DNA of 32,000 nt from Crocosphaera subtropica ATCC 51142 (GCF_000017845.1 NC_010546.1:930001-962000), one strand, 5' to 3'. Shown: positions 9,985 to 30,215, numbered from the stretch's first letter. Notes: generated by a model not told the origin, from the sequence alone. Translations and numbers: made by a program.

Positions 9985-10050
9985 AGCTTTTCAAGCAATT
10001 ATCAATCTTTTTTATCTAAATTTTACTATAATTTAGAGTTGTTGCCCACC

Positions 10051-10698
10051 CTAAAGTTTATTATCTCGCCAGGTGAAAATTACTCTTTCTTCTGCTTGTC
10101 TAAATTCAATATTAAACTGATCGAAAATAACTTCTCTTCCTAATAATGATTGTTCTGTATCCGTTAGTGTTTGTAACCAAGCAACAGGTGCAATTAATTG
10201 ATGATTATCAATGGTAAATTCTACATTACGCAAAACATATTCTACATTACCCCCAATAGTTTCAGCGACTAAAGTTGACTCTGCATCGGCTAATTGATAA
10301 CCTAAATCTTGACCCATTTTATAAGAAATTAAGCTAACTTCTGCACCAGAATCAACTAACATGGTTGTTTGAATTTCAATTTGATTATGTTTTAACTTTA
10401 CTAAATAATTCGGTTGCCAATTATGACGAACAACAGAACGGAATTGAATCGGTAAAATTTGGATTGAATAATGCTTTCGAGGAACCAAGTAAATGACAAA
10501 AGTTTGATGAGTTGCTTCTGCTTCTTCTAAAACAGGTTTTAACTTTTTACCATGAGCAATTATCCCCTTTTCATTATAAGCAATATATTGATCTTTATAT
10601 AAATTAAGAACCCTCTCACGATTATTATTTAACCATCGTAATATCGCCTGAGCTTGCTCTTGAGAAATAGCGGAACTCATCTTTATCTTATCCTCCAT
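10051..10698 (-). CDS. DUF5678-like N-terminal domain fused to a retropepsin-like aspartyl protease domain
   Basis: 215 aa. LVDSGAEVSLIS carries the D-S-G-A active-site signature (Asp codon at 10351-10353, checked on the DNA). The N-terminus (WLNNNRERVLNLYKDQYIAYNEKGIIAHGKKL) resembles DUF5678. Confidence 0.6.
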   Translation of the reverse strand: MEDKIKMSSAISQEQAQAILRWLNNNRERVLNLYKDQYIAYNEKGIIAHGKKLKPVLEEAEATHQTFVIYLVPRKHYSIQILPIQFRSVVRHNWQPNYLVKLKHNQIEIQTTMLVDSGAEVSLISYKMGQDLGYQLADAESTLVAETIGGNVEYVLRNVEFTIDNHQLIAPVAWLQTLTDTEQSLLGREVIFDQFNIEFRQAEERVIFTWRDNKL

Positions 10699-17077: not shown

Positions 17078-17656
17078 TCAAAATTTAGATAACTCTAAAT
17101 CAAATCCAGATAAGATATTTTCTCCTGATAAAGTGGTTGGTAATGAAACAATTTCTACTGGCTGATTTTGACGATAAATTTCGACTTGTTGATTTTGCGA
17201 ATTAATTAACCACCCTAATTTTAACCCACTGTTAAGATACTCTTGCATCTTGGTTTGAAGTTGATGTAAACTATCAGTTCTTGACCGTAATTCAATGACA
17301 AAATCGGGACAAATAGGAGCAAATGTTTCTTTTTCTTCTAAAGTTAATCTATTCCATCTTTGATTAGAAATCCAAGCTACATCGGGAGAACGTTTACCTC
17401 CATTGGGTAAGATGAAAACTGTAGAAGAACTAAACACTTTTCCTAGTTTGGTTTGACGATTCCATAACCAAACTAAACCATTTAATTCCGATTCCCTATT
17501 ACCACTAATTGCACCAACGGGAGGCATAATAATTAGTTCTCCTTTAGCGGTTTCTTCCAGTCGCCATTGATCATTAACTTGGCAAAGTTGATAAAATTGT
17601 TCATCGCTTAAGCCAACATTTTTTATGTTTAAAATAATCGGTTTAGTAAGCATCAT
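17078..17656 (-). CDS. Uma2 family endonuclease (DUF820)
   Basis: 192 aa with PD-(D/E)xK-like elements (SPDVAW, CPDFVIELRS). This family is very abundant in cyanobacteria. Confidence 0.75.
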   Translation of the reverse strand: MMLTKPIILNIKNVGLSDEQFYQLCQVNDQWRLEETAKGELIIMPPVGAISGNRESELNGLVWLWNRQTKLGKVFSSSTVFILPNGGKRSPDVAWISNQRWNRLTLEEKETFAPICPDFVIELRSRTDSLHQLQTKMQEYLNSGLKLGWLINSQNQQVEIYRQNQPVEIVSLPTTLSGENILSGFDLELSKF

Positions 17657-22529: not shown

Positions 22530-25500
22530 ATGAACAGTAAAACCTACGCTACTATTGATGGAAACGAAGCCGTTGCCAGAGTTGCCTATCGTCTCAACGA
22601 AGTGATCGCCATTTATCCCATTACCCCCTCTTCACCCATGGGAGAATGGGCCGATGCTTGGGCTTCTATCGGACAACCTAACTTGTGGGGGACGGTCCCC
22701 TCTATTGTGGAAATGCAAAGCGAAGGAGGGGCAGCCGGTGCCATCCACGGATCGTTGCAAACGGGGTCTTTAACAACGACATTTACCGCCTCTCAGGGCT
22801 TATTATTGATGATCCCTAACCTCTACAAAATAGCCGGGGAACTCACCGCAACGGTGATCCATGTAGCCGCGCGATCGCTGGCCGCCCAAGCTTTGTCTAT
22901 CTTCGGGGATCATGGGGACGTGATGGCAGCCCGTAGTACTGGGTTAGCCTTGATCGCCTCTGCATCCGTGCAAGAAGCCCAAGACTTTGCAGCTATTACC
23001 ACCGCAGCCAGTTATGAGAGTCGAGTTGCCGGACTACACTTTTTTGATGGGTTTCGCACCTCTCATGAAGTGCAGAAAGTAGAATTATTGGATGATACGG
23101 TGTTGCGATCGCTGATCAAAGACGAATGGGTGATCGCCCATAGACAAAGGGCCCTAACCCCCGATCGCCCGGTTATTCGAGGAACAGCCCAAAACCCTGA
23201 TGTGTACTTCCAAGCGAGAGAAACCGTCAACCCCTTCTATGCAGCCTATCCCGACATTTTGCAGAAGACAATGGATAAGTTTGCCCAACTGACGGGAAGG
23301 GAATATAAGTTATACGAATATCATGGTGATCCTGAAGCTGAAAAGGTCATTATTTTGATGGGTTCCGGTTGTGAAACTGTCCATGAAACCGTAGATTATT
23401 TAATTAGTCAAGGGGAGAAAGTTGGGGTTTTAAAAGTTCGGTTATATCGTCCCTTTGCTGCTGAAAAGTTAATTAAAACCTTACCAAAAACTGTCAAAAA
23501 AATTGCTGTATTAGACCGTACCAAAGAACCCGGTTCAGCAGGAGAACCTTTATATGTTGATGTAGTGACAGGTTTCATGGAATGTTGTGAGGAGATGCCT
23601 CTACCAAAAATAGTAGGGGGTAGATATGGTTTATCCTCTAAAGAGTTTACCTCAGCTATGGTAAAAGGGGTATTTGATAACTTAGCTTTAGATAACCCTA
23701 AAAATCACTTTACCATTGGTATTAAAGATGATCTCAGCCATACCAGTATTGATTATGATCCTAATTTTTCTACTGAACCAGATAATGTTGTCAGAGCAAT
23801 TTTCTATGGGTTAGGCTCAGATGGAACCGTCGGAGCTAATAAAAACTCCATTAAAATTATTGGAGAAGAAACGAATAACTATGCTCAAGGTTATTTTGTT
23901 TACGACTCCAAAAAATCAGGCTCAGTTACCGTATCTCATCTACGGTTTGGACCGAACCCTATCAAGTCTACTTACTTAGTAACCAAAGCCAACTTTATTG
24001 CTTGTCATCAATGGGAATTTTTGGAAAAATTTGACCTCTTAGAACCGGCCATAGAAGGATCAATCTTTCTCATTAACAGTCCCTACCAACCCGAATATGT
24101 ATGGCAACAGTTACCCCGTCCCGTGCAAGAACATATTATTAACAAAAACATCAACGTTTATGTTATCAACGCCTATGAAGTGGCCAGAAATGCAGGGATG
24201 GGTGGCCGAATAAACACTGTCATGCAAGTCTGCTTCTTTGCTTTGGCCAATGTACTGCCCAGAGAAGAAGCCATAGAACAAATTAAAAAATACATCCGTA
24301 AGACGTATGGGAAGAAAGGGGAAGACATCGTACAGATGAACATTAAAGCCGTTGACGCTGCTTTAGATCATCTCCATCAAGTTACCATACCCAACAGCAT
24401 TGATGATAACGCCCCAGATATCGCTCATCCTATCCCAGACACCGCCCCGGCATTCATCCGAGATGTGTTAGGTAAAATGATGGCTAGACAAGGGGAAGAT
24501 ATCCCTGTCAGCGCGTTACCTTGCGATGGTACTTACCCCAGTGGCACGGCAAAATGGGAGAAGCGTAATGTAGCGCAAGAGATACCCGTTTGGGATGAAG
24601 ATGTCTGCGTTCAATGTGGTAAATGTGTTCTTGTTTGTCCCCATGCGGTGATCCGGTCTAAAGTATATGAAGAAGCAGCCTTAAGTAACGCCCCTGAAAG
24701 CTTTAAAAGTGCCGATGCTAAAGACTTAGACTGGAAGAAAACCGAACTTAAGTTTACCATCCAAGTTGCGGCAGAAGACTGTACTGGTTGCGGTGTTTGC
24801 GTTGATGTTTGTCCCGCCAAAAATAAATCTCAACCCAAACTAAAAGCCATTAATATGGCCCCACAGTTACCCATCAGGGAACAAGAACGAGAAAACTGGG
24901 ACTATTTTCTATCTATTGCCAACCCCGACCGAAATACCCTGAAACTCAACAAAATAAGCCATCAACAGATGCAAGAACCCTTATTTGAGTTTTCAGGGGC
25001 CTGTGCCGGTTGTGGGGAAACCCCTTATATTAAGTTAGCTACCCAACTATTCGGCGATCGCATGGTGGTAGCCAACGCCACGGGATGTTCTTCTATTTAT
25101 GGCGGTAACTTACCCACCACTCCCTGGACCCATAACCAAGAAGGAAGAGGTCCGGCCTGGTCTAACTCTCTCTTTGAAGATAACGCAGAATTCGGGTTAG
25201 GGTTCCGTGTCTCCATCGATAAACAAACGGAGTTTGCCACAGAGTTAGTCAAAAGTCTTGCTTCTGATATCGGAGAAACCCTCGCTACAGGCATTTTAAA
25301 CGCCCAACAGAAAGATGAAGCAGACATCTTTGAACAACGGGAACGAGTCGCTTTTTTGAAACAACGGTTAACCCAGTTAAGCAATGGCAACTTAGAGGAA
25401 ACCACCCAAGCTAAAGTAACCATGTTGCAGTCTGTAGCAGACTATTTAGTTAAAAAGAGTGTTTGGATCATCGGGGGTGACGGTTGGGCCTATGATATTG

Positions 25501-26162
25501 GATATGGTGGGTTAGACCATGTGTTAGCCAGTGGCCGCAACGTCAATATTTTGGTCATGGACACGGAAGTTTATTCTAACACCGGGGGACAAGCATCTAA
25601 AGCGACTCCTCGCGCTGCGGTGGCTAAGTTTGCCTCTGGGGGGAAACCCTCACCCAAGAAGGACTTAGGGTTAATGGCCATGACTTACGGTAACGTTTAT
25701 GTGGCCAGTGTAGCGATGGGTGCAAAGAATGAGCATAGTATCAAAGCCTTTTTAGAAGCAGAAGCTTATGAGGGTGTTTCTTTGATTATTGCCTATTCTC
25801 ACTGTATCGCCCACGGTATCAATATGACCACTGCTATGAGTTATCAGAAGGACATTGTGGATAGTGGACGCTGGTTATTGTATCGGTATCATCCCGACTT
25901 AGTAGGAGAAGGAAAAAACCCCTTACAGTTAGATATGAGAAGTCCCAAGCTTCCCATTGAACGGACGATGTATCAAGAAAACCGTTTCAAAATGTTAGCC
26001 AGAAGTAAACCGGATGCTGCGAAAAAACTGCTTAAACAAGCGCAAGAAGATGTTAATACCCGTTGGCAAATGTATCAATATTTAGCGGCAAGGCAGTTAG
26101 AAATGGGTAACGGAAATGGACATAGTAAGGGGAATATTGAGACTGAAACAACCGTTAATTAG
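22530..26162 (+). CDS. nifJ: pyruvate:ferredoxin (flavodoxin) oxidoreductase
   Basis: 1210 aa with two ferredoxin-type clusters (CVQCGKCVLVCPH, CTGCGVCVDVCPA) and TPP-binding GGDGWAYDIGYGGLDH. Confidence 0.95.
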   Translation: MNSKTYATIDGNEAVARVAYRLNEVIAIYPITPSSPMGEWADAWASIGQPNLWGTVPSIVEMQSEGGAAGAIHGSLQTGSLTTTFTASQGLLLMIPNLYKIAGELTATVIHVAARSLAAQALSIFGDHGDVMAARSTGLALIASASVQEAQDFAAITTAASYESRVAGLHFFDGFRTSHEVQKVELLDDTVLRSLIKDEWVIAHRQRALTPDRPVIRGTAQNPDVYFQARETVNPFYAAYPDILQKTMDKFAQLTGREYKLYEYHGDPEAEKVIILMGSGCETVHETVDYLISQGEKVGVLKVRLYRPFAAEKLIKTLPKTVKKIAVLDRTKEPGSAGEPLYVDVVTGFMECCEEMPLPKIVGGRYGLSSKEFTSAMVKGVFDNLALDNPKNHFTIGIKDDLSHTSIDYDPNFSTEPDNVVRAIFYGLGSDGTVGANKNSIKIIGEETNNYAQGYFVYDSKKSGSVTVSHLRFGPNPIKSTYLVTKANFIACHQWEFLEKFDLLEPAIEGSIFLINSPYQPEYVWQQLPRPVQEHIINKNINVYVINAYEVARNAGMGGRINTVMQVCFFALANVLPREEAIEQIKKYIRKTYGKKGEDIVQMNIKAVDAALDHLHQVTIPNSIDDNAPDIAHPIPDTAPAFIRDVLGKMMARQGEDIPVSALPCDGTYPSGTAKWEKRNVAQEIPVWDEDVCVQCGKCVLVCPHAVIRSKVYEEAALSNAPESFKSADAKDLDWKKTELKFTIQVAAEDCTGCGVCVDVCPAKNKSQPKLKAINMAPQLPIREQERENWDYFLSIANPDRNTLKLNKISHQQMQEPLFEFSGACAGCGETPYIKLATQLFGDRMVVANATGCSSIYGGNLPTTPWTHNQEGRGPAWSNSLFEDNAEFGLGFRVSIDKQTEFATELVKSLASDIGETLATGILNAQQKDEADIFEQRERVAFLKQRLTQLSNGNLEETTQAKVTMLQSVADYLVKKSVWIIGGDGWAYDIGYGGLDHVLASGRNVNILVMDTEVYSNTGGQASKATPRAAVAKFASGGKPSPKKDLGLMAMTYGNVYVASVAMGAKNEHSIKAFLEAEAYEGVSLIIAYSHCIAHGINMTTAMSYQKDIVDSGRWLLYRYHPDLVGEGKNPLQLDMRSPKLPIERTMYQENRFKMLARSKPDAAKKLLKQAQEDVNTRWQMYQYLAARQLEMGNGNGHSKGNIETETTVN

Positions 26163-26181: not shown

Positions 26182-26206
26182 AGGGTGGGTTTTTATGACT
26201 CACCCT
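26182..26206. terminator. weak hairpin between convergent nifJ and tcmP
   Basis: agggtg-ggtttttatgact-caccct forms a 6-bp stem with a large loop. Confidence 0.3.
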
Positions 26207-26219
26207 ATTCATGTATATT

Positions 26220-27101
26220 TTATTCTTGTAATTTTAATTTTTCATAGAGTTTAAATATATCATTGGTAATTTTAACTGCCGTTTTGTTATGACTAGCTAA
26301 ACATAAAGCATAAAGAACAGAATTAGTGGAATTTTTCATAAGAACTGGTTGACTAACATACTGAAAAATTGTTCTTAATTGTTTAGTATATAAATCAGCT
26401 AACCATTCTGCTTTGATTATTTCACGTTTTAAAGAAGATGTTTGTTCACTTTGCTCAGGAAATAAGCTTAATTGAACAGTAGGAGGTTGTTTATAAACTT
26501 CTGTTATCCAATCAGTATTACCCATTACTCTATTTAATAATTCAATATGTTCTGGTTTTGGTTCTCTATCTTTAGGGAGTATCCGCGTTATTCCCATCAC
26601 AGAAAAATTAACAAAAATATCGCATTTTCTTGTATTAGCTAACTTTGTTATAGTTTCCCAATCAATTGATAATCCATAAGGATCTAGAAAAACAAACGCT
26701 CTTGTTGAACTAGAATTGAATTTAGGTATTAATTGATCACATAAGACTTCATTACAGTTTCCGTGATAGACTTCGATGTTACAGTCAGAAAAATCATCTT
26801 TAAGTCTCTCTATTCGTTCTATTCGTTGTGAAGAAATATCAATAAACCAATAACCATCAAATTTAGGTTCTATTTGTAAAGCACGCAAAGGAGAACCTTT
26901 AATATACCTTTTTTCATCGTCTTTTGCTCTTGGTCTAAGAGAACCAGCAAACGCATCAATATAGTAGTATTTTGTGAGCCATTTCTCTTTTTGTTTATTC
27001 ATAATGATAGAATAAGCTTCAAGATATTTAGCTAATAAATCTAGCTTATCTTCCGACCATTTTCCGATAATATCTTCTCCATCTTCACCAAACCGACTCA
27101 T
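26220..27101 (-). CDS. tcmP: three-Cys-motif partner protein TcmP family (RlmJ-like methyltransferase-fold candidate)
   Basis: 293 aa. Motifs were checked on the DNA: YIDAFAGS (26940-26963), GSPLRAL, and FLDPYG (about 26673-26687). The ATG at 27101 is preceded by AAGG and lies 17 nt after the DUF5131 stop. Confidence 0.65.
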   Translation of the reverse strand: MSRFGEDGEDIIGKWSEDKLDLLAKYLEAYSIIMNKQKEKWLTKYYYIDAFAGSLRPRAKDDEKRYIKGSPLRALQIEPKFDGYWFIDISSQRIERIERLKDDFSDCNIEVYHGNCNEVLCDQLIPKFNSSSTRAFVFLDPYGLSIDWETITKLANTRKCDIFVNFSVMGITRILPKDREPKPEHIELLNRVMGNTDWITEVYKQPPTVQLSLFPEQSEQTSSLKREIIKAEWLADLYTKQLRTIFQYVSQPVLMKNSTNSVLYALCLASHNKTAVKITNDIFKLYEKLKLQE

Positions 27102-27118
27102 AATAAAATTACCTTAAG

Positions 27119-27907
27119 CTAATGTGTAGAAAGTAAAAATTTTTGTTTAATTTCCATAAACTTACTCTTGCTAGAAAATTTATGCTTATATTGCATCAAA
27201 TGTTCATTCCAAGCAATAGGCATTTGATCCCAAGTTCTATCATTAAAAATTCTACCACCTGCCTTAGAATAGCGTCCTCCCCATTGTTTAAAAAAGAAGG
27301 GAACCTCTGCTTTTTGTGTTTGCTCTAAAATAGACTGAACCCACTCAGGTTGAATAGGACGATGTTTAAAACCAGACTCACCCCCAACAATTACCCAATG
27401 AATACCAGTTAAATCTAATTCTAATGGTCCTAAAAGGGGTTCACAAGATAGGAAGCGTACCTTAGCTGGAACTTTCCTTAGAGCATCAATTCTCTTGGTA
27501 TAGGTTTGACTTTCCACTGATACACCTATCCAAATATTATCGGACCATTCTAACTCAGGAGCCAATTCTACAAGTCTTTGATCCCGTTTAGTTAAAATTT
27601 GGTAGATATGCCAAGGTGTTTCCTTCATCACTGCAAAAACGTCTTGCAGATAACTGATAGGAACATCTTTATGAAAAAGATCACTCATTGAATTAACAAA
27701 AATTCGGCTAGGAGTACGCCAACGTCTGGGTTGATCAAGTCTTTCTGGATGAAGCGTTAAGTCAAAGCCTTCTGGAAAACTGTTCGTAAAACGCTGAGTT
27801 AAAGCCTCAGCATAACAATAACGACATCCAGGACTGACTTTAGTGCATCCAGTCGAAGGATTCCATGTTTTATCCGTCCATTCAATACCAGTGTTGCTAC
27901 TTGACAT
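27119..27907 (-). CDS. DUF5131 / phage Gp37-Gp68 family three-Cys protein
   Basis: MSSSNTGIEWTDKTWNPSTGCTKVSPGCRYCYA has a C-x6-C-x2-C motif at 27815-27847, checked codon by codon. It also has FLSCEPLLGPL, WVIVGGESG and FFFKQWGG. ATG at 27907 is preferred over the TTG at 27943 used by the track. Confidence 0.75.
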   Translation of the reverse strand: MSSSNTGIEWTDKTWNPSTGCTKVSPGCRYCYAEALTQRFTNSFPEGFDLTLHPERLDQPRRWRTPSRIFVNSMSDLFHKDVPISYLQDVFAVMKETPWHIYQILTKRDQRLVELAPELEWSDNIWIGVSVESQTYTKRIDALRKVPAKVRFLSCEPLLGPLELDLTGIHWVIVGGESGFKHRPIQPEWVQSILEQTQKAEVPFFFKQWGGRYSKAGGRIFNDRTWDQMPIAWNEHLMQYKHKFSSKSKFMEIKQKFLLSTH

Positions 27908-28133
27908 GACTCTAAGTATATAGCTTGCTAGATGAGTTTTCAATTAAGATTAATACATCTTAACTATTTTTTATTTCTCTTTTTTTAAAGAGTATCTTAA
28001 TTAAGATCAAAAAACTATTACAAGTATTCAAAATAATGCTACTCAGATTTATGATTTAATTACAACACAAAAAGAAATTGATAATATTTCTCGGACGAAA
28101 CCCGAACTAAAATTAACCACAGATTATGGACAC

Positions 28134-28661
28134 TTGTATCAAGGAGATTGTTTAGATTTAATGTTTCATACAGCATCAGATAGTATTGATTTAATTTTTG
28201 CCGATCCTCCATTTAACTTAAGTAAAATATATCCTTCAAAAATAAATGATCAACTCATGGATAGAGATTATTTAAGCTGGTGTGAAACTTGGTTAAAAGA
28301 CTGTATTCGTATTTTGAAACCAGGAGGAAGTTTATTTTTATGGAACTTACCAAAATGGAATACTTATTTATCACAATTTCTGAATCAATATCTTACATTT
28401 CGTCATTAAATAACGGTTGATATTAAATACTCGTTTCCGATTTCAGGACGATTATATCCTTCTCATTACTCTTTACTTTATTACTGTAAAGGAGATAAAC
28501 CTAAAACATTTCACTCAGATAGACTACCTTTAGAAATTTGCTCTAATTGTTATAAAGAACTTCGAGATTATGGTGGATATAAAGATAAGTTAAATCCTCT
28601 AACTCAGTTAGAAAACAAAATCAACATACTAATAATAGTAATCCAAATAAAAATAATGTAG
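28134..28661 (+). pseudogene. beta-class N6-adenine/N4-cytosine DNA methyltransferase remnant (nonsense codon plus loss of the C-terminal SAM-binding half)
   Basis: LYQGDCLDLM...IDLIFADPPFNL (motif IV) ...GGSLFLWN...LTFRH then TAA at 28407-28409. The same frame continues ITVDIKYSFPISGRLYPSHYSLLYYCKGDKPKTFHSDRLPLEICSNCYKELRDYGGYKDKLNP. Similarity ends near 28598 and there is no FxGxG motif. No in-frame ATG lies upstream (open back to 28005), and the only start is TTG at 28134. Confidence 0.7.
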
Positions 28662-28736
28662 TTTTTCAAACAGAATTAGATTTTTCAATCAAAGAAACCT
28701 AAATGTTAATAAGGACGAAAAATTAGCGATCGCAAA

Positions 28737-28833
28737 TTTTGTAGATTGAGTTAAAAAACGAAATCCAATACAACTTATTCTTGTCTTTTACATCTATTGC
28801 TTGGGTTGCACTTTGTTTAACCCAACTTACAAA
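28737..28833. repeat. pair of inverted hairpin repeats (TTGTAnnTTGGGTT...AACCCAA type)
   Basis: Copy A is ttttgtagattgagttaaaaaacgaaatccaatacaa (28737-28773, degenerate). Copy B is ttgcttgggttgcactttgtttaacccaacttacaaa (28798-28833), with a perfect 7-bp stem ttgggtt/aacccaa and in the opposite orientation. Confidence 0.5.
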
Positions 28834-28883
28834 TATCATATATTAAAAGATAAAGTAATTAAGGAATCGGCTCTCCCGTAATT

Positions 28884-29147
28884 ATGGTGATGATTGGAGC
28901 TAAAATGCCATTACTTAATACATCTGAATTACTCTGTTGTGTGAACAGATATGAATCACAACATGAAGAAGCAGTCAACTACCTAGAGTCAACAAACAGA
29001 AATATCACTCATAATTATATTTTAGTCGAATGTGTAGCACTAGCTTTTGTTAAAAAATTTTCTCGTTTACAAACTCTAGAATTTATTTCTGATTTACTTA
29101 AACACCCCGATTCAGATAACTCAACTTTAGCGCAGCCTGGTCTGTAG
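28884..29147 (+). pseudogene. truncated PIN-domain (VapC-like) fragment
   Basis: MPLLNTSELLCCVNRYESQHEEAVNYLESTNRNITHNYILVECVALAFVKKF resembles the N-terminal half of PIN toxins (xxDTSxxxALxxxxDxxHxxA...TSNYVLVETxAL). Asn replaces the first Asp. The ORF ends at 87 aa, and the distal acidic residues are absent. Confidence 0.4.
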
Positions 29148-29227
29148 TGCCGTCGGTTCCATCTCATCAGATTCAAAGAATTAGTTGATGAGTTAACCTA
29201 AAATCAATTAGTATCATAAGAAGCACC

Positions 29228-29256
29228 AACCCATAGGATAAGTGTACCTATGGGTT
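29228..29256 (+). other. perfect 10-bp-stem hairpin upstream of ribF
   Basis: aacccatagg-ataagtgta-cctatgggtt. No T-run follows, so it is not a classical terminator. Confidence 0.45.
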
Positions 29257-29294
29257 ATCTATATGACTAAAATTTTCAGGATAAGGACTTGAAT

Positions 29295-30215
29295 GTGTGG
29301 GTAACATCATCAACTAGCAACGTCATCACGCCAACGGCGATCGCTTTAGGTAATTTTGACGGTATCCATCTAGGACATCGACAAGTGCTTAAACCTATCC
29401 TAGAACTTCAGAAACAATATACTCCCACCATTGTTACCTTTACCCCTCACCCTCAAGAATTTTTTAGCGGCCAAACACGACAGTTATTAACTCCTCTCAC
29501 GGAAAAAGTCAAACTTTTGGAGTCCCTCAACGTTAAACAATTAGTCCGTTTACCCTTTGATCGCAGTTTAGCTTCTCTGAGTCCTCAAGCATTTGTAGAA
29601 GACATTTTAGTGAAGCAGCTTAATGCTAAATATATCAGCGTAGGAGAAGATTTTCGCTTTGGAAAAGGGAGAGCAGGAAATGCCCAAATTTTACAAGAAT
29701 TAGCTCAACAATTTGGAGTCTTTGTTCATATTACTAAGTTACAAACTTGTCTCAATAAAGATGACCCGTTACGGATTAGTAGTTCAAGAATTCGTCAATG
29801 TTTAGCCACGGGAAACGTCAGACAAGCTAAAGAAATGTTAGGTTATTCTTATTCATTAGAAGGAATTGTCGTTAAAGGGCAACAGGTAGGTAGAACCATT
29901 GGTTTTCCTACGGCTAACCTACAAGTTCCTTTAGATAAATTATTACCCCGTCGTGGGGTTTATTGTGTTCGCGCTCTTTTGACCACAGAAGAAGTGGTTA
30001 AGGGCGTGATTAATATTGGTAGTCGTCCTACCGTTAATGGCCAAGTTCCTACAGTGGAAGTTCATTTATTAGATTGGTCAGGAAACTTATATCGAACTTT
30101 TGTAAAAGTTCAGTTAGACAAATTTTTACGTTCTGAACAAAAATTTCCCTCCCTAGATGCACTCAAAAATCAAATTAAACAAGACTGTATCATAGCCCGT
30201 CAGATATTAGAGTAA
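29295..30215 (+). CDS. ribF: bifunctional riboflavin kinase / FMN adenylyltransferase
   Basis: WVTSS..TPTAIALGNFDGIHLGH at the N-terminus, and a C-terminal kinase part (GRTIGFPTANL, VEVHLLD). GTG at 29295 sits 7 nt after AAGGA and is preferred over TTG at 29289. Confidence 0.9.
   Translation: MWVTSSTSNVITPTAIALGNFDGIHLGHRQVLKPILELQKQYTPTIVTFTPHPQEFFSGQTRQLLTPLTEKVKLLESLNVKQLVRLPFDRSLASLSPQAFVEDILVKQLNAKYISVGEDFRFGKGRAGNAQILQELAQQFGVFVHITKLQTCLNKDDPLRISSSRIRQCLATGNVRQAKEMLGYSYSLEGIVVKGQQVGRTIGFPTANLQVPLDKLLPRRGVYCVRALLTTEEVVKGVINIGSRPTVNGQVPTVEVHLLDWSGNLYRTFVKVQLDKFLRSEQKFPSLDALKNQIKQDCIIARQILE

Follow-up and report, generated by a model that had tools for sequence, protein, structure and literature searches.

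The pair formed by TcmP, the three-Cys-motif partner protein (TIGR04474), and DUF5131 (PF07505; Gp37/Gp68) is described as a pair of protein families, neither of which has an assigned function, and it has also been catalogued as a candidate defence system, PDC-M41. The present analysis concerns a copy of this pair in a 32,000-nucleotide stretch of the Crocosphaera subtropica ATCC 51142 genome (NC_010546.1:930001-962000), the whole of which is called the window here. The TcmP gene (26220-27101, minus strand, 293 aa) and the DUF5131 gene (27119-27907, minus strand, 262 aa from the ATG at 27907) are adjacent and 17 nt apart, and they match the TIGR04474/PF07505 description fully, including the defining adjacency of a three-Cys protein; the cyanobacterial order, with DUF5131 first and a spacer of 13-17 nt, is one of four arrangements. 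PADLOC matched TcmP to PDC-M41A (E 3.7e-65) and DUF5131 to PDC-M41B (E 1.2e-107), which identifies the pair as a predicted PDC-M41 system. The PDC systems are 145 untested candidates put forward on guilt by embedding in BREX, DISARM or type I restriction-modification (R-M) loci (bioRxiv 10.1101/2024.01.29.577857); the PDC-M41 candidates were found embedded in defence loci, whereas the window pair is not so embedded. PDC-M30 has a longer TcmP-like protein (PDC-M30A, approximately 375 aa), to which the window match is weak (E 6.5e-9).

The existence of the pair is therefore not new. An earlier note on this DNA had presented it as a candidate uncharacterised module, which stands insofar as the families have no assigned function, but the pair had not gone unnoticed, given that PDC-M41 is catalogued and that the annotation of this genome already names the TcmP gene. 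What is added here is the swapping of partners beside TcmP, the linkage of TcmP in all arrangements, the frequent occurrence of DUF5131 alone, a convergent architecture in prophages and embedding in DISARM-like and type IIG loci. We tentatively read the pair as a two-enzyme module, self-contained and horizontally mobile, whose function would be to modify a nucleic-acid base, most likely in DNA, for phage-host conflict. Should the pair use radical chemistry to write or remove a nucleic-acid modification, this would represent new enzymology in such conflict, a role for the spore photoproduct lyase (SPL)-like radical S-adenosylmethionine (SAM) proteins of non-sporulating bacteria and possibly a new base-modifying tool. 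Concrete, testable constraints come from the partner swapping and the prophage architecture.

Nothing characterised resembles the pair mechanistically. RlmJ (the 23S rRNA A2030 N6-methyltransferase; PDB 4blu, 6qdx and 7p8q; DUF519) has the fold closest to that of TcmP and is its only significant sequence relative in the PDB, with motifs I-IV and the serine of the GSP block aligning. TcmP differs from it in having no Pfam match, in lacking a helical subdomain of approximately 40 residues, in having DP-Y for DPPY and in its longer first helix, and whereas RlmJ is a solitary housekeeping enzyme, TcmP has a radical SAM neighbour. SPL and SPL-like proteins, PA0069 and Rv2578c (PF20903, TIGR04070, NF033668, NF038135) replace DUF5131 beside TcmP in 15 loci, have the Cys triad and the LTK and EP motifs in common with it and belong to the same RadicalSAM.org megacluster; in contrast to them, DUF5131 has the spacing CX6CX2C, is shorter (approximately 250 aa), reaches no SPL model, is a weak structural match and gives no indication of a lesion-repair role. 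The radical SAM mobile pair (TIGR04471, protein A; TIGR04470, protein B) is also a mobile two-gene cassette built on SPL-clade proteins, and DUF5131 matches protein A (E 1.5e-26) and the alternative TcmP partners weakly match protein B, all below the equivalog cutoffs, but that cassette consists of two radical SAM proteins and has no methyltransferase-like partner. Type II R-M systems resemble the pair as two-gene mobile units with a methyltransferase-fold protein, variable orientations (convergent included) and a presence in defence loci and prophages; they differ from it in that the pair has no nuclease domain or match to a restriction endonuclease model, and in that TcmP is never orphaned whereas DUF5131 often is. 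The supplement of Millman et al. 2022 mentions neither family, and in a full-text literature search DUF5131 appeared once, as a radical SAM subgroup, and TcmP in gene lists only.

Folds and conserved residues of TcmP and DUF5131

Both family assignments proposed in the earlier note held. TcmP matched TIGR04474 over profile positions 1-261 of 263 (E 2e-72, 244.3 bits, cutoff 53), and DUF5131 matched PF07505 over positions 1-243 of 243 (E 1.6e-95, 319.7 bits, cutoff 28.9). The window TcmP shows 100% identity with the protein annotated in Crocosphaera subtropica ATCC 51142 (formerly Cyanothece) and matched no Pfam family at E 0.01 or better; the TcmP family as a whole comprises approximately 4000 clusters at 50% identity. 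Single-sequence PDB searches of TcmP and DUF5131 returned nothing meaningful, weak matches to Dps being due to chance. When 69 diverse TcmPs, with 30-51% identity to that of the window, were combined into a profile, the only PDB entries matched were of the RlmJ family, with RlmJ at E 5.5e-5 and the Legionella DUF519 homologue 2oo3 at no better than E 0.097, and hhalign of this profile against E. coli RlmJ gave a probability of 95.8% (E 7e-9) over the motif I-IV core. The AlphaFold2 model built from the 69-sequence alignment (pLDDT 94.9, pTM 0.91) retrieved RlmJ/DUF519 structures as all of its top 13 Foldseek matches in the PDB, and further class I methyltransferases, E. coli YhhF (2fpo) among them, ranked below these. 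TM-scores against the RlmJ structures were modest (0.35-0.5), and a structure search of BFVD returned generic methyltransferases only. Profile, alignment and model all agree with the earlier proposal of a SAM-methyltransferase fold with a degenerate DPPY motif.

The correspondence with RlmJ extends to individual residues, and the blocks YIDAFAGS, GSPLRAL and FLDPYG, which occur in TcmP in that order, are collinear with the RlmJ motifs exactly as had been claimed. Motif I, the SAM-binding loop (Y47-IDAFAG-53; 26943-26963, minus strand), aligns as YiDAFAGsG with YLDTHAGAG of RlmJ, with F51 opposite H42, and both D49 and F51 are invariant in the 69 TcmPs. S70 of the G69-S70-P71 block (26889-26897, minus strand) is likewise invariant and stands opposite S100 of RlmJ. 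In motif IV (F138-LDPYG-143; 26673-26690, minus strand), which is DPPY minus one Pro, D140 and P141 are invariant, and LDP-YG aligns with IDPPYE with a gap at the second Pro, placing D140 opposite the catalytic D164. Structural work on RlmJ has assigned roles to these positions: H42 stacks on the SAM adenine, S100 (by a hydrogen bond) and D164 bind the SAM amino-acid moiety, E118 binds the ribose and D143 the adenine, and K18 and D164 are essential for catalysis (PMC3814359). The counterparts of E118 and D143 in the TcmP alignments are D/E88 and D/N115, and an invariant lysine, K19, is present in the N-terminal helix of TcmP where RlmJ has K18; we infer that K19 is the counterpart of K18, the local alignments themselves beginning at residue 34. 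Between motif I and the GSP serine, TcmP has a gap of approximately 38 residues in place of the RlmJ helical subdomain, of which residue E60 contacts the substrate analogue AMP (PMC3814359), and few TcmPs have an unrelated insertion there. By these comparisons TcmP is a relative of RlmJ outside the RlmJ family, which probably binds SAM and may transfer a methyl group to an exocyclic amine. One apparent clue from a fusion, a 552-aa TcmP (P0256), was discarded, being a near-exact tandem self-repeat that is most likely an assembly or circular-contig artefact and not a domain fusion.

In DUF5131, the motif C21-x6-C28-x2-C31 (GCTKVSPGCRYCY; 27815-27847, minus strand) and the blocks SCEPLLGPL and VIVGGESG read as previously quoted. 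The three cysteines C21, C28 and C31 are invariant in 26 cyanobacterial and 27 phylum-wide DUF5131 proteins, the latter including two from phages, and the motif CX5-7CX2C is found in 80/80 viral homologues, so that the conservation expected of the triad extends over many phyla. The cysteine of SCEPLL (C155), on the other hand, is invariant in cyanobacteria only and is replaced elsewhere by L, I, F, V or M. Three Cys ligands together with an open iron site are the pattern of a radical SAM cluster. All five residues of the GGESG block (G175, G176, E177, S178 and G179; residues 175-179, 27371-27385, minus strand) are invariant, and the block, which we infer to be a radical-SAM motif of the GxIxGxxE type, sits at the end of the fifth β-strand (171-177) of the AlphaFold2 model. 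This model (pLDDT 78) has six β-α units, suggesting a six-unit β-α partial barrel, and the Cys motif lies in a loop (22-35) of low confidence, which is expected because the model contains no cofactor.

Foldseek matches to the DUF5131 model were weak (best E 2.6e-3) and comprised generic TIM barrels together with SPL, LipA, MiaB and SuiB. The AlphaFold and Foldseek comparison suggested earlier for both proteins thus gave an RlmJ-like fold for TcmP and, for DUF5131, weak radical SAM matches with the Cys loop poorly defined. In hhalign, DUF5131 aligned with the SPL-like and PA0069-like partners described below at E 1.5e-4 (probability 51%), with the Cys, LTK and EP motifs in register and a 3-residue insertion in DUF5131 that turns CX3CX2C into CX6CX2C. 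Neither of the SPL models PF20903 and TIGR04070 matched the window DUF5131, and TIGR04471 (radical SAM mobile pair protein A) did so at E 1.5e-26, with a score of 93 against a cutoff of 355. RadicalSAM.org lists DUF5131 as a radical SAM subgroup, Megacluster-5-2, beside SPL in 5-3 (PMC9477430). DUF5131, a large family with at least 8000 scored matches, is probably a radical-SAM-type [4Fe-4S] enzyme of the SPL clade, and the strongest argument for this placement is that TcmP partners such enzymes generally.

Linkage, partners and genomic contexts of the pair

A pattern-limited scan of a one-genome-per-species collection (185,579 genomes) with a 15-sequence alignment found 402 relatives, a rare and patchy distribution. 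Of these, 79 genomic TcmP loci were kept, in which open reading frames (ORFs) were called and searched with custom hidden Markov models (HMMs). A three-Cys protein adjoined TcmP in 71/79 loci, namely DUF5131 in 56, an SPL-family protein (PF20903) in 9 and a PA0069/Rv2578c-like Radical_SAM protein in 6; in the 8 loci where no partner was seen, the locus was cut by a contig end or TcmP was a decayed copy or fragment. Every intact, evaluable TcmP therefore adjoins a radical-SAM-type three-Cys protein, be it DUF5131, SPL-like or PA0069-like. Adjacency was kept in all four arrangements: DUF5131 then TcmP in 35 loci (mostly cyanobacteria, modal spacer 13 nt), TcmP then DUF5131 in 18 (often with a 4-nt overlap), convergent in 2 and divergent in 1, overlaps of 1-4 nt being frequent. 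The spacers of the cyanobacterial pairs ranged from 7 to 39 nt, again with a mode of 13, and these pairs showed 60-70% identity across many orders.

The alternative partners have the Cys triad and the LTK and EP motifs in common with DUF5131, and they match PF20903/TIGR04070 at scores below the equivalog cutoffs (e.g. 137.9 vs 400). TcmP is, in general, a partner dedicated to radical SAM enzymes of the SPL clade. In Cyanobacteriota bacterium JS3, a 131-aa TcmP fragment without a radical SAM neighbour (10001-10396 of the locus) lies on a 5.5-Mb contig; it looks like a decayed copy, and the pair can therefore be lost by erosion.

Outside the cyanobacteria, the genes within three positions of the pair included type I, II and IIG R-M components and DrmMI/PglX-like methyltransferases, as well as dGTPase, PD-Lambda-5, GajB, AbiLi and AriA (PARIS, AbiL-type), mixed with ordinary metabolic genes. 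In 6/15 loci with an alternative partner (L080, L070, L072, L076, L078 and L067; Nitrospirae, Nitrospinae and Thermodesulfovibrionales metagenome-assembled genomes, MAGs), a shared type IIG/DrmMI-like adenine methyltransferase of approximately 1200 aa was encoded upstream on the same strand. Two of these, L080 and L076, share a protein of approximately 1000 aa further upstream, the L080 copy of which matches SNF2/DEAD helicases. L080 (729-11964) resembles a DISARM operon, with five consecutive same-strand genes whose overlaps or gaps are all ≤4 nt, in the order SNF2/DEAD helicase, adenine methyltransferase, 809-aa protein, TcmP and SPL-like enzyme. The TcmP of Sinorhizobium meliloti, SMa2243, has been listed together with the defence gene Hna as forming a putative transcription unit. 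Cyanobacterial neighbourhoods were non-syntenic and mostly housekeeping, with scattered Uma2, GmrSD, PIN, AAA_21 and RadC genes.

In viral genomes from IMG/VR, DUF5131 was present in 53/54 TcmP loci, and the two genes were convergent in 47/54, their 3' ends overlapping by 3-88 nt, whereas on cyanobacterial chromosomes they are co-directional. In prophages, such overlap hints at regulation that is antisense or independent, and each of the two genes is probably under its own control. In the Gordonia phage PantheRoc (6004-7736 of its locus), TcmP (gene 41) overlaps the immunity repressor (gene 42) co-directionally and DUF5131 (gene 40) is convergent to TcmP, both lying between the integrase and Cro. 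Across approximately 40 dereplicated viral loci, in which two genes on each side were surveyed, the commonest neighbours were HTH_3 (11), Peptidase_S24 (9), HTH_31 (8) and Cro/C1 HTH (6), followed by P2 tail-end gpD (6), gpU (4) and recombinases; the viral location of the pair is the prophage immunity and cargo region. Phage phi1026b carries DUF5131 approximately 2.6 kb from an SOS-response-associated peptidase. With PDC-M41, the prophage immunity regions and the DISARM-like and type IIG loci, the association of the pair with mobile and defence contexts envisaged by the earlier note was supported by both the genomic and the viral loci.

The dependence between the two genes is one-sided. DUF5131 was found on at least 594 IMG/VR contigs, and among the closest 80 only 30 had TcmP, 41 of the 50 loci without it having ample flanks; in a GenBank phage collection, DUF5131 occurred in 181 records and TcmP in 5. 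Because DUF5131 often occurs without TcmP while all but one of the viral TcmP loci carry DUF5131, it is TcmP that depends on the radical enzyme and not the reverse. Pairing of lone DUF5131 with other DNA methyltransferases was suggested by two phage cases and then rejected: in a crude motif census, amino-methyltransferase motifs occurred in 9/458 ORFs near TcmP-less viral DUF5131 and in 10/438 distant ORFs. Clustering of the neighbours of TcmP-less DUF5131 likewise gave no common partner, yielding only 3 C5-methyltransferases and 2 PDC-M30A-like proteins. In three such loci (L181, L187 and L195), DUF5131 is followed directly by a C5-cytosine DNA methyltransferase (FAGIGG...PCQ motifs). In two others (L147, at 1101-2219, and L158), the gene upstream of DUF5131 encodes a 372-404-aa protein whose motif I (YADLFAGPGRY) is TcmP/RlmJ-like and which is probably a longer, PDC-M30A-type partner that the TcmP HMM missed, so the TcmP-less viral fraction is somewhat overestimated.

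Candidate functions of the pair

In the mechanism we propose for a mobile base-modifying module, the three cysteines of DUF5131 would ligate a [4Fe-4S] cluster and leave its fourth iron to bind SAM; SAM would then be cleaved reductively, and the resulting 5'-deoxyadenosyl radical would take a hydrogen from the substrate. TcmP, which appears to keep the machinery for exocyclic-amine methylation (motif IV Asp and motif X Lys), would act on the same site, either ahead of the radical enzyme or after it, by transferring a methyl group in an SN2 reaction or at least by handling the base in a SAM-dependent manner; it would probably work in a complex with the radical enzyme, since translational coupling is frequent. 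The module would travel as cargo of prophages and defence loci and would mark the nucleic acid of its carrier or alter that of an invader. A bolder version, which we consider doubtful, is that of a conflict system in which an RlmJ-like methyltransferase and an interchangeable radical enzyme (DUF5131, SPL-like or PA0069-like) write or erase a non-canonical DNA base modification, deployed from the prophage immunity region and, in some bacteria, plugged into DISARM or type IIG loci. If true, the large DUF5131 family and the SPL-like "DNA repair photolyase" proteins of non-sporulating bacteria would receive a function for the first time.

Several observations weigh against a nucleic-acid-modifying conflict module. 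The window DUF5131 does not match the Pfam Radical_SAM family (PF04055), its structural support is weak (Foldseek best E 2.6e-3, hhalign 51%) and its Cys spacing is CX6CX2C where CX3CX2C is canonical. RlmJ, the closest solved relative of TcmP, acts on RNA and does not methylate single-stranded DNA (PMC3814359), and neither its activity nor its substrate can be transferred to TcmP, because motif IV lacks a Pro and the RNA-binding helical subdomain is absent. As most viral DUF5131 genes have no TcmP, TcmP is not needed for the core reaction. The neighbourhoods of the pair are heterogeneous and many are housekeeping; that in the window is mostly so, and the pair there lies outside any embedding defence system. 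The setting in mobile and defence contexts as opposed to housekeeping ones, put forward in the earlier note, finds support in other genomes but not in this window, where nifJ and ribF flank the pair. Finally, the PDC systems are candidates that await testing, and a full-text literature search found no functional study of TcmP or DUF5131 and no tested member.

The relatives of TcmP could also be taken to favour RNA, with the pair modifying rRNA or tRNA as translational tuning or as an abortive-infection effector. RlmJ is an m6A (N6-methyladenosine) methyltransferase of 23S rRNA A2030, and the next structural neighbour, E. coli YhhF (2fpo), listed only as a putative methyltransferase, is presumably the 16S rRNA methyltransferase RsmD; RNA is the substrate of many radical SAM enzymes, the weak structural matches include MiaB, and some Mycobacterium abscessus prophage DUF5131 genes are labelled RNA methyltransferase, although these phage annotations are unreviewed. 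We nevertheless regard an RNA target as unlikely, since the radical SAM partners are of the SPL clade, the one characterised member of which has DNA as its substrate, and the pair is embedded in DNA-targeting systems. TcmP moreover lacks the helical subdomain (the 38-residue gap) whose E60 contacts AMP, and the catalytic site of RlmJ itself has been described as closer to those of DNA m6A methyltransferases (PMC3814359). Membership of the SPL clade might, alternatively, indicate DNA repair or damage tolerance, in which the radical SAM enzyme would reverse a lesion, TcmP would be a base-flipping or lesion-recognition subunit, and light-exposed cyanobacteria and lysogens would benefit. The clade relative whose function is known, SPL, repairs DNA, and matches to the SPL families PF20903 and TIGR04070 were found for the alternative TcmP partners; the pair is well conserved over many cyanobacterial orders, and in prophages it adjoins CI-type repressors with a Peptidase_S24 (LexA-like) domain or, in phi1026b, has DUF5131 not far from the SOS-response-associated peptidase. 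Yet the SPL-family scores are far below the equivalog cutoffs, the distribution is patchy and rare with no synteny between genomes, and TcmP keeps all the methyl-transfer residues, which a pure recognition subunit would not need. Many carriers also appear, from the names of their sources, to come from groundwater or the subsurface (Nitrospirae, Elusimicrobia, Thermodesulfovibrionales, Dehalococcoidia), where UV pressure seems improbable, and a repair function is in our view decidedly unlikely.

The conflict setting itself would accommodate an R-M-like division of labour, with TcmP methylating the carrier's own DNA as the antidote and the radical SAM enzyme damaging or cleaving unmethylated invader DNA. 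The pair does combine a methyltransferase-like protein with an enzyme of a DNA-acting clade, in co-directional, convergent and divergent arrangements, and type II R-M gene pairs occur in all such orientations. The overlapping 3' ends of the 47/54 convergent prophage copies imply separate promoters, TcmP of PantheRoc overlaps the repressor co-directionally with DUF5131 on the opposite strand, and pairs are embedded among R-M, BREX and DISARM genes. Such a scheme is very unlikely all the same: 50/80 of the closest viral loci have DUF5131 without TcmP, amino-methyltransferase motifs are not enriched near lone DUF5131 (9/458 vs 10/438), and a toxic effector left on its own should be lost. R-M methyltransferases commonly occur as orphans, whereas TcmP was never found alone; neither protein has a nuclease domain, and the frequent overlaps of 1-4 nt suggest stoichiometric co-expression and not opposed regulation. 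Least probable of all, and hardly to be expected, is a viperin-like route in which the pair makes a modified nucleotide or antiviral metabolite. Radical SAM proteins are already present in defence (the viperin model NF038283, to which there were faint matches, and the Ophion and HXS systems), and no third conserved component would be needed, but the similarity to viperin is negligible (E approximately 7e-3, cutoff 180 bits), the nearest relatives of TcmP and of DUF5131 have nucleic-acid polymers as substrates, and no nucleotide kinase, phosphatase or transporter recurs among the neighbours.

Gene starts, expression signals and flanks in the Crocosphaera window

The two co-directional minus-strand genes, the 17-nt distance and the AAGG before the second ATG reported earlier are present in the sequence. 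A mechanical ORF listing gave DUF5131 as 27119-27943 from a TTG and TcmP as 26220-27101, and the earlier note had taken the gene to extend to 27943. That position stands as the mechanical call but not as the start, which is almost certainly the ATG at 27907 (MSSSNTGIEW...), because the N-termini of all homologues match there. The TTG at 27943 is part of the -35 hexamer in a promoter-like site (27915-27943, minus strand; TTGAAA, 17 nt, TATACT; 10/12 matches, the best of the region), and the mechanical call begins there because TTGAAA supplies the TTG. The site ends 8 nt before the DUF5131 ATG, which suggests a leaderless or near-leaderless mRNA; it is only suggestive, since promoter-like sites in the region are no commoner than expected from shuffled sequence. 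The spacer between the genes (27102-27118, minus strand; CTTAAGGTAATTTTATT), with AAGG 10 nt before the TcmP ATG, is consistent with co-transcription and coupled translation. No intrinsic terminator was scored in the terminator scan of the region. An inverted repeat at 26182-26206 (AGGGTG, 13 nt, CACCCT), passed over by that scan because it has no T-run, lies between the convergent stops of nifJ (26162) and TcmP (26220) and could be a weak bidirectional terminator hairpin.

On one side the pair is flanked by a nifJ-type pyruvate:ferredoxin oxidoreductase gene (22530-26162), and on the other ribF lies at 29289-30215. Its sole defence-like neighbour, divergent from DUF5131, is an N-terminal fragment of an N6/N4 DNA methyltransferase (28134-28409, plus strand, 91 aa, with the beta-class motif DPPF), which matched PF01555 over profile positions 1-57 of 221 only (E 6.9e-12) and PADLOC MTase_II over positions 126-216 of 428 (E 1.8e-37). 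The fragment is not continued by any downstream ORF of ≥60 aa, those before 28884 reaching 43 aa at most, and approximately 880 nt after it (28410-29288) are without long ORFs. The fragment looks like a decayed methyltransferase gene, and we do not claim it as part of the module. Of the local setting sketched in the earlier note, this methyltransferase remnant was recovered, the AT-rich islet was weak and no support was found for toxin-antitoxin debris or repeats. The GC contents of TcmP (30.2%), DUF5131 (37.8%) and the methyltransferase fragment (27.9%), set against 36.6 ± 5.5% for the window genes, make the islet mildly AT-rich, and several ordinary window genes are also at 29-31%. No convincing direct or inverted repeats that might mark mobile-element boundaries were found around the islet, and an 87-aa ORF at 28884-29147 had no Pfam match, the other short ORFs of 28410-29288 not having been examined for toxin-antitoxin remains.

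A Uma2-family putative restriction endonuclease (PF05685, E 1.2e-44) is encoded at 17078-17656 on the minus strand, approximately 9 kb from the pair. Among the Pfam families found beside the pair in other cyanobacteria, Uma2 ranks first (4/127), and the family is very abundant in cyanobacteria generally. In a related Crocosphaera MAG, TcmP is also found near nifJ, with one extra gene between them, and the insertion therefore seems to be old within the genus.

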